Shown piece by piece: positions 36,958 to 40,200 of a stretch of DNA of 64,000 bases. The translations under genes and the position numbers were made by a program. The notes under the pieces are model-generated. The model had not been told where the DNA came from. It was given only the letters and a program-made list of their open reading frames with translations, and did not search any database. This DNA comes from a virus (lineage: Duplodnaviria; Caudoviricetes), in the IMG/VR virus record IMGVR_UViG_3300024999_000097, positions 1,199 to 65,198 of that record. One strand, written 5' to 3'. Positions within the stretch are counted from its first letter, which is position 1. Each line of letters begins with the position of its first letter.

Positions 36958-37022
36958 GTATATACTTCACTCCTTTGTAATACAATTGTAATACAACAAA
37001 AGTAAAACAAAGGAGTGAAGTA
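36958..37022 (+). promoter_or_regulatory. Operator/promoter with RBS-masking 16-bp inverted repeat
   Basis: tacttcactcctttgt (36963-36978) / acaaaggagtgaagta (37007-37022); tandem palindromic TTGTAATACAA x2 (36975-36996). Confidence 0.8.
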
Positions 37023-37023
37023 A

Positions 37024-37218
37024 ATGGCTCAGAAGTTTACACAGCAAGCTAATGTAAGATTAACACCAAATCAGTTTAAACAGTGTTTAGAAAATGGTGG
37101 AGTTTCATTTTATGTTAGATGGTTAATTGACCAAGATATAGTTGTTCGGAAGTGTAAAGTGGAGAGCAATTTGGTTAGAAAAGTAATGGAGGAAAAAAGA
37201 ATAGAGTGTGGCTATTAA
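37024..37218 (+). CDS. Ribbon-helix-helix-like regulator
   Basis: ANVRLT..Q ... SFYVRWLID pattern. Confidence 0.6.
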   Translation: MAQKFTQQANVRLTPNQFKQCLENGGVSFYVRWLIDQDIVVRKCKVESNLVRKVMEEKRIECGY

Positions 37219-37293
37219 ATGTTGTGTTACAACATTTTATTCAGTGAATACTCAGAATATACCTATTTTAGTCTTTAGAGGAGGAAATATTTT

Positions 37294-37647
37294 ATGGGAA
37301 TTAAAAGTAAGTTGTTTACTGCTGTTCATTCTATTGGTAATCACCTAGAAAGAAATAAAAAACTTTACCTAGGAATTGGTTACTCGTTAGTTGTTACAAT
37401 TTTAATAGATCCTTCTGAAGCCTTTGCAAGTGTTGATGAAAGTGGTAGAAGGTTCCATATGAAAGTAGTTTCTATTGGTAAATGGGTTATAATTATCAAA
37501 GGTTCTATTGATGCTATACAATCCGTTCTTAATGGTGATATGCAAGCTGCTAAAAAGACTTTCCTTTCATATTTAATGTGTTTTGCTATTATGCTTGGTT
37601 TACCTTGGTGCCTTGATGAAATTGAGGGGGTATTTAAGGATGTTTAG
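37294..37647 (+). CDS. Pilin/VirB2-like membrane protein
   Basis: Signal-like segment ending EAFA, then two hydrophobic helices ending LPW. Confidence 0.55.
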   Translation: MGIKSKLFTAVHSIGNHLERNKKLYLGIGYSLVVTILIDPSEAFASVDESGRRFHMKVVSIGKWVIIIKGSIDAIQSVLNGDMQAAKKTFLSYLMCFAIMLGLPWCLDEIEGVFKDV

Positions 37648-37852
37648 TCTTTTAGGTAAAGGTGGTATATTAGCAGCTCTTTATATCTTAGCTAAAACAC
37701 AGCCTGAAAAAGTAATTAATTATAGTCATGAAATAACTTTAATTGGAAGTACCATTTTAGTTATTTTATATGTAGCTGGTCTTAAAGATGGTTTACGTTG
37801 GATAGTTATTTTATTTGTGATTAACCTACTTGTTAGAGCATTTATAGGTTAG
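37640..37852 (+). CDS. Small multi-pass membrane protein
   Basis: About 70 aa, mostly hydrophobic, GAGGGG RBS. Confidence 0.65.
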   Translation: MFSLLGKGGILAALYILAKTQPEKVINYSHEITLIGSTILVILYVAGLKDGLRWIVILFVINLLVRAFIG

Positions 37853-37863
37853 GAGGTAATTAT

Positions 37864-40176
37864 TTGAAATCAATAAAGTTTAGTAATATTATCAACATTA
37901 TTCATCCAGAGTATGTTTATTTAAAGTTAACATCAAACAATTCTATAAGAAACAATTCTTCATATAAGATAGCTAAAGCAATTAGTTCACTTTATATTTC
38001 TTCTTTGCAAGCAATAAAACGTGAAGAGGTCAAAGTAATTAAACTTCTTGGTAAGCAATTTACTTTATCTAAACTTTCGGTTACTGTAAATTCAAAAGTC
38101 TCATATTTTGTTTATATTGAAAAGCAACAAGTTAACTTTTATTTTATTATACCAAAATATGTTCTTAGTATTATAGAAGAAAAAATAAATGATGCATGGC
38201 CTAGTGTAACAATTACAAAAGTTGCTGACATTCCTCAGTTTAGTGATTTAGCTACTAAATATCAATTGGTATATACCAAAGAAGATGCTTTAAGTTTAGC
38301 TATAGATAGAAGATCTAATGAACTTCTTACAAGCACCCTTAATATTGCTGATGTATTAAAAGAAAATGATAAAGTAGGTATATTTTATAATTTTATGCCA
38401 ACTAATCAACATATATGGGGTAGTTCATATCGTACAACAATTAACAATGTTGCTAGGAACGTTCCAGTTGAACGGAATAAATTAAGCCCTGTGTTTATAT
38501 TAAAGTTAATATTAAAGTTTATCAGTGACGTTGTGAAGGATATATGTGAGGTCTTTACAGGGCCCAATAAACCTACTCTTGAAGGGATATTAAATCAGTT
38601 TAATCAACCAAAAACATTATCAGAAGCTACTATTAAAAAAGGTACTGACTCAGTGTTAAATACTCAAATAGTAATTCTTAGTGAAAGCAAAGATAGTCTT
38701 AGACAAATAAATAATGCTAAAAGTTTAGTACAAAGTTTTGATTCTATTTCCGATGATAATTCTTTAGTTGCTAAAAAATATACTAAGAAATTTAATCCAT
38801 TAGGTTTTTCTATAGGTACAGAAACAAATAAAATAGGTACTATTGAGTGTTCTAATTTTATTTGTTTACCTGGTAGGGAGCTGCTTGAAAAGTATGATTT
38901 TATTGATAAAGTTCAAACACAGGAAATACAAATACCAGATGAATTAAAGCAAGGTATAATGTGTTTAGGTGAAAATACTTTCAAAGGAAATAAACAAAAA
39001 GCTTACCTTAGTACAGATTTTGATTACCAGATGTTAAGCTTAGTCTTAATTGGGCCAAACCGGGCAGGTAAATCAAAATTTCTTGCTAATATTGCTAAAA
39101 ATGCCATTGATGCTGGAGAATGTGTAATAATACCAGACTATATTGGAAGTTGCCAACTTAGTAGTGAAATAGCTGCTACTATTAATAAAAATAAAGTCCT
39201 TGAAGTACATTGTGATAATTGGGATACTTTACAAGGGCTTGGTTTTAATGAAGTACCTAAAAGTAATAATCAATTTGTGCAATATAAAAATGCTAAAGAG
39301 CAAACAGCACTTTTAATGACATTAGTAGATAGTATAAATTCAGATGATGCTAATTTCACTGCTAGAATGGGAAGATATTTTGAAGCAGCTAGTTTAGCAG
39401 TATTCCTTTCAAATGGAAGTATAAAAGATGTATTTGCTGTATTAATGAATCATAATATAAGGCATGAATTTATCAAGAAAATACCTCCAACTCAAAGGGA
39501 AAATATGAAGGAATATATTGATTACTTAATTGAACTTGATGCTATAGAAAAAGGAGTATTAGTAGGTACAAGAACTCACTTAATTACTGGTGCAATTGAT
39601 AGACTTCAAAAGCTTAAAGTTAATGCTTACCTGGAGTTAATGCTTAAGAAAGGTTCTAAAGGTAATATTAATTTAGTTAATGAAATGCAAAAGAACCAGC
39701 TTATTGTAATTAAAATGCCTCAACGGATGTTCTTGACTGACAATGAAAAAGATGTATATGTAACTTATTGGTTAACTAAAATATGGCTATCTTTACAAAT
39801 AAGGGAAGAGCAAATTCAAGATAGAAATAAAATGGCAAAAGTTAACTTAATAATAGATGAACTCTATCAAGTCAATAATGCTGAGAAATTCCTGACCAAA
39901 AAGTTAAGTCAACTACCTAAGTTTAATCTTAAACCGATTATAAGTTGCCATTATCTAAATCAAATAAAGATTATACGTGAAGAACTTAGAAGTGCTAATG
40001 CTTCGTATATGTTAATAAGTGGATGTGATAAAAAGAACTATGATGAATTAAAATCTGAATTATATCCATTTATTGAAGAAGACCTTTTAAAACTGCAACG
40101 TTATAATAGCATGAATTTGATAAAATGTAATAATGGATATGGCAAGTTTATAACTAAGCTTCCAAAACCACTCTAG
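37864..40176 (+). CDS. VirB4/VirD4(TraD)/FtsK-HerA superfamily P-loop ATPase
   Basis: LIGPNRAGKS Walker A, VIIPDY, LIIDE Walker B, CHYLNQ, FITKLP end. Confidence 0.75.
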   Translation: MKSIKFSNIINIIHPEYVYLKLTSNNSIRNNSSYKIAKAISSLYISSLQAIKREEVKVIKLLGKQFTLSKLSVTVNSKVSYFVYIEKQQVNFYFIIPKYVLSIIEEKINDAWPSVTITKVADIPQFSDLATKYQLVYTKEDALSLAIDRRSNELLTSTLNIADVLKENDKVGIFYNFMPTNQHIWGSSYRTTINNVARNVPVERNKLSPVFILKLILKFISDVVKDICEVFTGPNKPTLEGILNQFNQPKTLSEATIKKGTDSVLNTQIVILSESKDSLRQINNAKSLVQSFDSISDDNSLVAKKYTKKFNPLGFSIGTETNKIGTIECSNFICLPGRELLEKYDFIDKVQTQEIQIPDELKQGIMCLGENTFKGNKQKAYLSTDFDYQMLSLVLIGPNRAGKSKFLANIAKNAIDAGECVIIPDYIGSCQLSSEIAATINKNKVLEVHCDNWDTLQGLGFNEVPKSNNQFVQYKNAKEQTALLMTLVDSINSDDANFTARMGRYFEAASLAVFLSNGSIKDVFAVLMNHNIRHEFIKKIPPTQRENMKEYIDYLIELDAIEKGVLVGTRTHLITGAIDRLQKLKVNAYLELMLKKGSKGNINLVNEMQKNQLIVIKMPQRMFLTDNEKDVYVTYWLTKIWLSLQIREEQIQDRNKMAKVNLIIDELYQVNNAEKFLTKKLSQLPKFNLKPIISCHYLNQIKIIREELRSANASYMLISGCDKKNYDELKSELYPFIEEDLLKLQRYNSMNLIKCNNGYGKFITKLPKPL

Positions 40177-40200
40177 GCCCTTCTAAGGGTCTATTTTTTT
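40175..40200 (+). terminator. Terminator
   Basis: aggccctt-ct-aagggtct + T run. Confidence 0.7.

Follow-up and report, generated by a model that had tools for sequence, protein, structure and literature searches.

SPP1-type cassettes and the new locus

Several phages of spore-forming bacteria carry accessory genes that have been compared with DNA or protein translocation systems. For SPP1, the passages of Godinho et al. (2018) on genes 31.1, 31.2 and 32 describe gp31.1 and gp31.2 as membrane proteins, liken gp32 to TrwB, VirB4 and FtsK, report that 31.2 and 32 are non-essential, place the cassette in the early PE5 unit along with the lysis genes, and suggest that gp31.1, gp31.2 and gp32 could "build a trans-membrane translocon" (PMC6316719). 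A section of Pathria et al. (2012) describes what these authors call a "DNA translocation operon", present in 0305phi8-36 and in SPO1 (gp27.3/27.4/27.9). It encodes a coupling ATPase (orf201, SPO1 gp27.4) together with one relaxase-like and one actin-like protein; no growth defect was seen when it was deleted in 0305phi8-36, and cell-to-cell DNA transfer in biofilms was offered as a speculation (PMC3357382). The part of a report on the Thrax phages that covers gp11-gp18 of these Tyroviruses lists ParM, a ribbon-helix-helix (RHH) protein, a "type IV secretion protein" and a replication-relaxation protein (PMC9703825). The idea of a translocon or of DNA translocation is, therefore, not new, as it was proposed before for the SPP1 and SPO1/0305phi8-36 homologues. 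Here, we analyzed a four-gene operon in a 64,000-nucleotide stretch (the window) of the IMG/VR virus record IMGVR_UViG_3300024999_000097, which is a divergent copy of the SPP1 cassette. The window contributes the most reduced form of the cassette, in which actin, relaxase (Replic_Relax) and peptidase are all missing, as well as a separate fold test of the ATPase N-terminal domain and negative tests of sporulation promoters and of a SpoIIIAD relation.

The operon encodes a 64-aa RHH-like protein, a 117-aa pilin-like protein, a 70-aa hairpin protein and a 770-aa ATPase, as seen in Table 1. Comparison of a 52-sequence alignment of the ATPase family with SPP1 gp32 by hhalign gave a probability of 100% (E 2.9e-50) over 758 columns, and BLASTP aligned the window ATPase with gp32 at 21% identity (E 8e-14). 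The window ATPase matches phrog_5156, annotated as "unknown function" (E 5.3e-84), and SPP1 gp32 belongs to PHROG 5156 as well. Since the ATPase is homologous to gp32 over its full length, the operon is a divergent copy of the gene 31, 31.1, 31.2 and 32 cassette. The two phages have in common the four-gene order, its position between lysis and replication genes, a small upstream protein that is probably homologous, and two small membrane proteins of equal sizes and topology. They differ in the low identity of the ATPases and in the 117-aa and 70-aa proteins, which have no detectable relation to gp31.1 and gp31.2.

The order of a small DNA-binding protein, a leader protein of ~120-140 aa, a hairpin protein of 70-230 aa and the ATPase was conserved across the relatives, namely phiCp-D, TPDSL_ph2, a 57-kb phage-plasmid of C. 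botulinum, four Paenibacillus genomes, three IMG/VR contigs and SPP1. The initial annotation had seen a self-contained unit here, and this was borne out: the operon is conserved, and its genes follow VirB2-VirB3-VirB4 in order and size. The family is large: 424 representatives at 50% identity were found at E <=0.001 in 1.84 billion proteins, and a 90% collection held 620 ATPase-family proteins at E <=0.001 among 8000 candidates. SPO1 gp27.4, CampHawk gp129 and 0305phi8-36 ORF201 match gp32 or the window ATPase, and many relatives adjoin ParM or partition genes. The SPO1, 0305phi8-36 and Tyrovirus operons resemble the window cassette in having the same ATPase family and in being accessory operons in phages of spore formers, but they also include ParM, which is actin-like, and the relaxase-like Replic_Relax protein, and no counterpart of either was found in the window phage. 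More than 100 sequenced phages, the models SPP1 and SPO1 among them, carry a type IV secretion system (T4SS) core pared down to three parts, namely the pilin-like protein, the hairpin protein and VirB4.

The ATPase and the small proteins

The ATPase was initially described as VirB4/VirD4-like. Its Walker A motif, GPNRAGKS, occupies residues 397-404 (39052-39075) and its Walker B motif, LIIDE, residues 662-666 (39847-39861). With Pfam, TrwB_AAD_bind stayed below threshold (16.7 bits vs a cut-off of 20.5) and AAA_14 was found besides, and NCBIfam gave nothing relevant. A sequence search of the PDB with the single ATPase gave 0 matches, and the family profile gave P-loop-level matches only. An AlphaFold model was built with the 52 family members as alignment (predicted local distance difference test, pLDDT, 90.1). 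Foldseek placed the R388 TrwK/VirB4 chains at the top for the full model (E 2.2e-13, whole-length alignment), with TrwB, HerA, DotL and Cag-beta ranking below TrwK.

The two predicted domains were also compared with 48,161 chains by VIA-align. For the C-terminal domain, the best match was the VirB4 C-terminal domain of Thermoanaerobacter pseudethanolicus (4ag5; Z 27.6, 336 aligned), followed by DndH-C (Z 26.1), HerA (24.0) and TrwB (23.9), and the E. coli FtsK motor came at rank 19 (Z 16.0, 215 aligned), after VirB4, DndH, HerA and the coupling proteins. Residues 1-354, when modelled alone (pLDDT 91.9), matched R388 TrwK/VirB4 with a Z of 14.1 (238 aligned, root-mean-square deviation 3.4), while the next best match had a Z of 8.0; the best 8 Foldseek matches of this domain were all TrwK (E 7.9e-5 to 3.5e-3). 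Because both domains match VirB4 folds, the ATPase is a two-domain VirB4-type protein. In the model there is no membrane anchor at the N-terminus, where residues 1-354 form a soluble alpha/beta VirB4-like fold, and hydropathy gave a single marginal hydrophobic window at residue 210.

Two other assignments were tried and rejected. A VirD4 or coupling protein was set aside because there is no N-terminal transmembrane anchor directly before the nucleotide-binding domain. An FtsK/SpoIIIE translocase was set aside because the FtsK Z of 16.0 falls far short of the 27.6 of the VirB4 C-terminal domain and because the N-terminal domain matches VirB4 alone. The VirB4 part of the initial description is supported in both domains, and the VirD4/FtsK part is not. 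A complex prediction for the full ATPase with the 70-aa protein returned a score of 0.00 (mark 0.32), which counts neither way. Compared with the T4SS core (R388 TrwL/TrwM/TrwK, 4ag5), the cassette is alike in gene order, sizes, the predicted VirB4 fold of both domains, Walker A/B, and the first protein's arrangement of a leader and two helices. It is unlike that core in that the window proteins fall outside the Pfam VirB4 and TrbC families and that it is carried by a tailed phage.

In the 117-aa protein, a basic N-terminus and a hydrophobic leader precede an AFA/S signal-peptidase-type site, after which come 72 aa with two hydrophobic helices round a charged loop. The processing-like site, ...DPSEAFA/S, is at residues 39-46, and hydropathy places the hydrophobic stretches at 26-40 (the leader), 56-75 and 89-107. 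A long leader, a signal-peptidase site and then ~70 aa with two hydrophobic helices make up the layout of VirB2/TrbC pilins (PF04956, PF18895). Homologues in a large protein collection (n=27) have an invariant GKW..KG...GD...LPW core, and the leader plus two-helix layout is kept in the 22 that were aligned. Pfam TrbC (PF04956) did not match the 117-aa protein at E 1 and matched 1 of the 22 homologues (E 0.022). Leads toward a pilin came from the ESM Atlas, with a features score of 0.90 (183 shared) to a TrbC cluster and a structural TM (template modelling) score of 0.61 to a Bacillota T4SS-pilin cluster. In ESM Atlas clusters, the pilin-like domain is found fused to VanY or glucosaminidase.

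A separate group of the gp31.1 type fills the pilin position in SPP1, TP-84, D6E, plasmid pCLK and one genome locus. The pCLK member passes Pfam TrbC (28.5 bits vs a cut-off of 27.9), and those of TP-84 and D6E are slightly under the TrbC/T4SS_pilin cut-offs. The 117-aa protein had no PHROG match at E 0.01, that is, none to the gp31.1 family phrog_5422. Position, size, topology and the ESM Atlas TrbC lead speak weakly for the pilin that was first proposed; Pfam TrbC and the profile comparison with the gp31.1 group speak against it. One Paenibacillus homologue of the 117-aa protein, P0290, bears the UniRef name "Stage III sporulation protein AD". A SpoIIIAD relation was rejected, as PF06686 matched 0/22 members and hhalign gave a probability of 0.2% against two Paenibacillus SpoIIIAD sequences. 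Given this low probability, the annotation as SpoIIIAD looks erroneous.

The 70-aa protein is a two-transmembrane hairpin with a G-x-x-G-x-R-W turn and occupies the VirB3 position. SPP1 gp31.2 has the same C-terminal hairpin layout. The hairpin is unfused in two related loci, L026 and L009, while an M23 peptidase is fused N-terminal to it in L007, L008 (Pfam E 1.8e-25), L010 and L027 and C-terminal to it in L029. These fusions to a wall peptidase point to a machine that works across the envelope. In L007, from Paenibacillus planticolens, the cassette with its M23 fusion is on a 69-kb contig marked circular, which is probably a phage-plasmid or an excised phage. Judging by their sequences, the 117-aa and 70-aa proteins would be a second lineage, without detectable relation to the SPP1 pair, that goes with the same motor.

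The motif S-x-Y-[VLI]-[KR]-x-L-I-x-x-D-[MI] is common to the 64-aa protein and to the small protein that precedes the module at 10 further loci, SPP1 gp31 among them. With hhalign, the 64-aa protein matched a profile of eight of those proteins, built without the 64-aa protein itself, with a probability of 74.7% (E 2.6e-5) over 30 columns. It is, therefore, a probable relative of gp31. It had no PHROG match, a PDB profile search found no RHH structure, and Pfam gave a weak Rep_OBD match only. The label RHH-like was based on the strand-helix-helix pattern and on a remark about gp12 in the Tyrovirus paper's section on these genes (PMC9703825), and an RHH fold is plausible.

Host range and possible functions

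Nearly all named homologues belong to phages or plasmids whose hosts form endospores. A tblastn search of 50,697 phage records with the window ATPase gave 33 matches, and all 33 were phages of Bacillus, Geobacillus (including D6E), Lysinibacillus, Brevibacillus, Clostridium or Terrisporobacter. With SPP1 gp32 as query, 107 phage records matched: Bacillus 93, Geobacillus 5, Lysinibacillus 2, D6E 2, and Alicyclobacillus, Terrisporobacter, Brevibacillus, Clostridium and Microcystis 1 each. Among 72,556 plasmids, the window ATPase matched 34 (Clostridium 32, Alicyclobacillus 1, Bacillus 1) and gp32 matched 50 (Clostridium 26, Bacillus 21, and Alicyclobacillus, Laceyella and Thermoactinomyces 1 each). 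A restriction of the family to elements of spore formers, which the initial annotation had proposed to test, very nearly holds, with 33/33 and 106/107 phage records and 34/34 and 50/50 plasmids, counts that stand without denominators per host genus. The genera of the matched phages and plasmids are endospore formers. Such collections contain many phages of Staphylococcus, Streptococcus, Lactococcus, Listeria and Enterococcus. Organism names were available for 20 of the best 120 of the 620 proteins, and these were Desulfosporosinus, Desulfitobacterium, Bacillus and allied genera, Paenibacillus and "Bacillota bacterium". For the distant representatives, 1 of 10 clusters was named (Lutispora thermophila). 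In the phylum of a Paenibacillus genome, 4 of 401 genomes matched, one of them that genome itself, which says nothing on spore formers.

The plasmid matches include the C. botulinum/sporogenes plasmids of the pCLK and pCLJ type. Like the window, these have a phrog_5156 ATPase (E 4.3e-160) directly after a leader-bearing protein of ~133 aa, and no other T4SS genes adjoin the pair. The differences from the window are a small protein that passes Pfam TrbC, a plasmid as replicon, and an ATPase ~24% identical to that of the window. The isolated TrbC/ATPase pair of pCLK (7525-10325) recurs on 20+ similar large plasmids, which are non-mobilizable by PLSDB typing. Phages are, therefore, not the only carriers of the cassette.

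The explanation we favor, to which we give slightly better than an even chance, is that the operon is an SPP1-type VirB4 cassette that builds a conduit through the envelope as an accessory function. The soluble ATPase would dock on the membrane via the VirB3-like hairpin protein, and ATP would drive extraction of the processed pilin-like protein from the membrane, which would build a short conduit through membrane and wall. Pilin extraction in pilus biogenesis is the best-documented activity of VirB4 and a core step of type IV secretion. In the relatives, the hairpin-fused M23 peptidase would open the wall locally; the window phage has no such fusion. The RHH-like protein would bind the palindromes that flank its gene and control the operon, and a 16-bp hairpin would hide its ribosome-binding site. 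Transcription would probably enter from the upstream lysis genes. By analogy, the cassette should be dispensable for lytic growth, since SPP1 genes 31.2 and 32 are non-essential and the 0305phi8-36 operon could be deleted without a growth defect.

Several observations weigh against this explanation. The Pfam VirB4 families gave no match to the ATPase, and no VirB4 protein is known to pump DNA unaided. Comparison of the 117-aa family with the gp31.1 group by hhalign was not significant (probability 15.7% and 1.1% with two alignments), and a relation of the 70-aa protein to SPP1 gp31.2 (phrog_20592) was undetectable (0.3%). The equivalence of the two small proteins to gp31.1 and gp31.2 rests on position, size and topology. 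No M23 fusion, ParM-like gene (with the L027 protein as query), Replic_Relax gene or sigma factor was found in the phage, and nothing in the window phage points to DNA cargo or sporulation. The Microcystis phage, 1 of the 107 gp32 matches and known from the tally alone, is an exception to the host range. Also, no experimental functional work on any cassette member was found in the literature beyond the papers cited.

As for the job of such a conduit, we tentatively rank first the crossing of the sporulation septum by phage DNA or protein, above cell-to-cell spread, exclusion and help with lysis, although this job would still be an improbable one taken by itself. The septum is a barrier exclusive to spore-forming hosts, and entry into the forespore would best explain the host range, the presence on both plasmids and phages, and the frequent actin or partition neighbors. 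A doubtful extension of this idea is a "conjugation inside one cell", in which a donor-only VirB4-type conduit in the mother-cell membrane would pass replicon DNA across the septum into the forespore. Its users would, with the same reserve, be virulent and temperate phages, phage-plasmids and large plasmids of endospore formers. If true, it would explain virospores and the confinement of the family to spore formers. The near-exclusive occurrence in spore formers makes entry of phage genomes into spores testable with existing Bacillus subtilis genetics.

A related possibility, raised in the initial annotation, is that the operon is switched on during sporulation by sigmaE in the mother cell and by sigmaF/G in the forespore, so that the phage genome or protein is pumped into the forespore and the phage is carried in the spore. 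The host range and the ParM or partition neighbors agree with it, as does the suitability of a donor-only conjugation-like core for crossing two membranes and a thin septal wall. SPO1, which has the homologue gp27.4, forms virospores, according to the portion of a report that deals with it (PMC12991052). However, sporulation-specific promoters were not supported by the sequence. The sigmaE-like string GTATA-N16-AATACAAT was at chance level, as ATA-N16-NATACANT occurred 1 time in the 64-kb window vs 2.24 expected and at least once in 86 of 100 shuffles, and its "-10" is the first of the operator-like repeats. No sigmaE-, F-, G- or K-like string was present upstream of the small gene in L026, L029, L009, L007 or L010; one sigmaK-like string was seen in L027, before the ParM-like gene. 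L026 and L029 were the closest loci readable for promoter conservation, and where the window has the sigmaF/G-like GTGAATACTC, L026 has the unrelated bases ACGGGAAGGC.

Other signs of sporulation control were also lacking. Spo0A boxes were not enriched in the window (4 vs 2.72 expected), with none before the operon, and Sigma70_r2 found no sigma factor in the phage. The SpoIIIAD name on P0290 offers no help, having failed in hhalign. Early promoters use sigmaA. The position of the SPP1 cassette in the early PE5 unit with the lysis genes, described above, is at odds with a sporulation switch. We, therefore, consider switching by sporulation sigma factors unlikely.

The conduit reading also has to be weighed against transfer of phage DNA to a neighboring cell without a virion, as Pathria et al. 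proposed for 0305phi8-36 in biofilms in the section cited (PMC3357382). The parts are of the conjugation type, wall hydrolase fusions included, and a relaxase-like Replic_Relax gene adjoins the ATPase in CampHawk and the Tyroviruses. This proposal leaves the restriction to spore formers unexplained, and neither SPP1 nor the window phage (by Replic_Relax) has a relaxase-like gene. The initial annotation had reported that no relaxase or other T4SS genes were visible; Replic_Relax (PF13814) was indeed unmatched in the 65,198-base record, where other relaxase families were not searched. At the locus, no VirB6, VirB8, VirB1, coupling protein or relaxase was seen, VirB6 and VirB8 likewise not having been searched record-wide. 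Transfer between cells is, on this evidence, very unlikely.

Another possible explanation is superinfection exclusion or conflict, with the membrane proteins and ATPase blocking or expelling the DNA of rival phages and plasmids. The membrane location and the presence of the module in temperate phages and phage-plasmids suit such a role, and the SPP1 cassette is both early-expressed and dispensable, according to the passages on these genes (PMC6316719). Many strictly lytic phages carry the module too, however, and exclusion would leave the wall-peptidase fusions and the pilin-like protein without an obvious role, so we rate it as improbable as transfer between cells. Least likely is help with lysis or wall remodelling, in which the module exports or positions a wall-degrading activity late in infection: the M23 fusions, the place of the module directly after the lysis cassette in the window phage, SPP1 and TPDSL_ph2, and the joint control of lysis genes and cassette by PE5 favor it, but SPO1-like phages, Tyroviruses and plasmids have the module with partition or replication genes instead, and SPP1 mutants without 31.2 and 32 are viable, again as the cited passages have it (PMC6316719).

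Operon boundaries, repeats and flanking genes

The virus record is 65,198 bases long and rated complete by CheckV, and the window covers nearly all of it. All genes of the record are on the + strand. Reading of the sequence confirmed the genes and coordinates first listed for the locus, together with GPNRAGKS, LIIDE, the EAFA site, the terminator, and the lysis and replication flanks. The operon is placed between the lysis cassette upstream and primase and other replication genes downstream. The ATG of the 70-aa gene lies over the stop of the 117-aa gene (ATGTTTAG), which makes an overlap of 8 nt, and the ATPase gene begins 11 nt past the 70-aa gene. The membrane-protein genes and the ATPase, thus, form a translationally coupled operon. 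Its terminator is the sole terminator-like site in 34700-41200. The TTTACA/TATAAT promoter used elsewhere was said to be missing here, and the best + strand sigma-70-like site between 36738 and 37493 indeed reached no more than 9/12.

Table 1. Features of the cassette and its surroundings, in positions of the window
Feature	Position	Strand	Remark
BhlA-family holin	34941-35147	+	upstream flank
Amidase_3 endolysin	35144-35731	+	upstream flank
S8 subtilase	35736-36749	+	Pfam E 1.7e-37, upstream flank
Second holin-like gene, phrog_9987	36757-36942	+	upstream flank
SigmaE-like string GTATA-N16-AATACAAT	36958-36986	+	chance-level match overlapping operator-like repeats
Perfect 16-nt inverted repeat	36963-36978 / 37009-37024	+	encloses the tandem palindromes
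Two tandem 11-bp near-palindromes TTGTAATACAA	36975-36996	.	candidate operator of the RHH-like protein
64-aa RHH-like gene	37024-37218	+	open reading frame
Palindrome ATGTTGT-GTT-ACAACAT, then TTTATTCA	37219-37235	.	between the RHH-like and 117-aa genes
SigmaF/G-like -10 GTGAATACTC	37244-37253	+	not conserved
117-aa pilin-like gene	37294-37647	+	open reading frame
70-aa two-transmembrane hairpin gene	37640-37852	+	true start ATG 37640
770-aa ATPase gene	37864-40176	+	open reading frame
ATPase N-terminal domain, residues 1-354, VirB4-like	37864-38925	+	predicted structure
ATPase C-terminal RecA-type domain, residues 355-770	38926-40176	+	predicted structure
Intrinsic terminator closing the operon	40174-40193 + T run (to 40203)	+	8-pair stem, 4 G-C, then TTTTTTTATA
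TTTACA-17-TATAAT promoter with TG	40215-40243	+	11/12 match; opens the replication genes

Two sets of palindromes lie around the RHH-like gene. Within the window, exact copies of TGTAATACAA are limited to the two in the tandem near-palindromes upstream of the gene. The string TTGTNNTACAA gave 5 strand-matches, located at the two tandem palindromes and the downstream one (3 sites), vs 1.93 expected, and 8 of 100 shuffles reached 5. Downstream of the gene, L026, a related IMG/VR phage with an ATPase 74% identical to that of the window, retains GTGTTGT-GTT-ACAACAC followed by TTTATTCA, in which the outer pair is altered on both sides and the flanks differ. L029 has two tandem TACTAA-N4-TTAGTA palindromes, another sequence, in the same place before its own small gene. 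In L026, seven TGTT[TA]AAC copies before and inside the RHH-like gene (2983-3287) form an iteron-like array with a sequence unlike that of the window palindromes.

The RNA fold of 36940-37040 had an energy of -33.6 kcal/mol (z -8.0), and 0 of 200 shuffles were as good. As RNA, the 3' arm of the 16-nt inverted repeat covers the ribosome-binding site of the 64-aa gene, and no T run follows. On read-through transcripts, this fold may control whether the regulator is translated. We infer that the operon is autoregulated and that its transcription enters from the upstream lysis genes.

Megablast of window positions 30000-48000 gave no match among the phage records, and Rfam gave no match at E 0.1 in 34000-42000. 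In the lysis cassette (34941-36942), two holin-like genes flank the Amidase_3 endolysin and the S8 subtilase; a serine protease within a lysis cassette is unusual. The record encodes its own DNA polymerase, primase, UvsX-like recombinase, thymidylate synthases, terminase and baseplate. An SSB-like (single-stranded-DNA-binding) protein encoded at 42053-42928 has an acidic tail with two ~35-aa repeats (…LYKLCQERDI.CK.KK.E.YYIALLEE…). The stretches 43270-46179 and 59618-60280 contain two thymidylate-synthase-like genes of phrog_85 (E 4e-11 and 1.9e-42) plus a thymidylate-kinase-like gene. By analogy with SPO1-type phages, these genes may belong to a pathway for a modified base.

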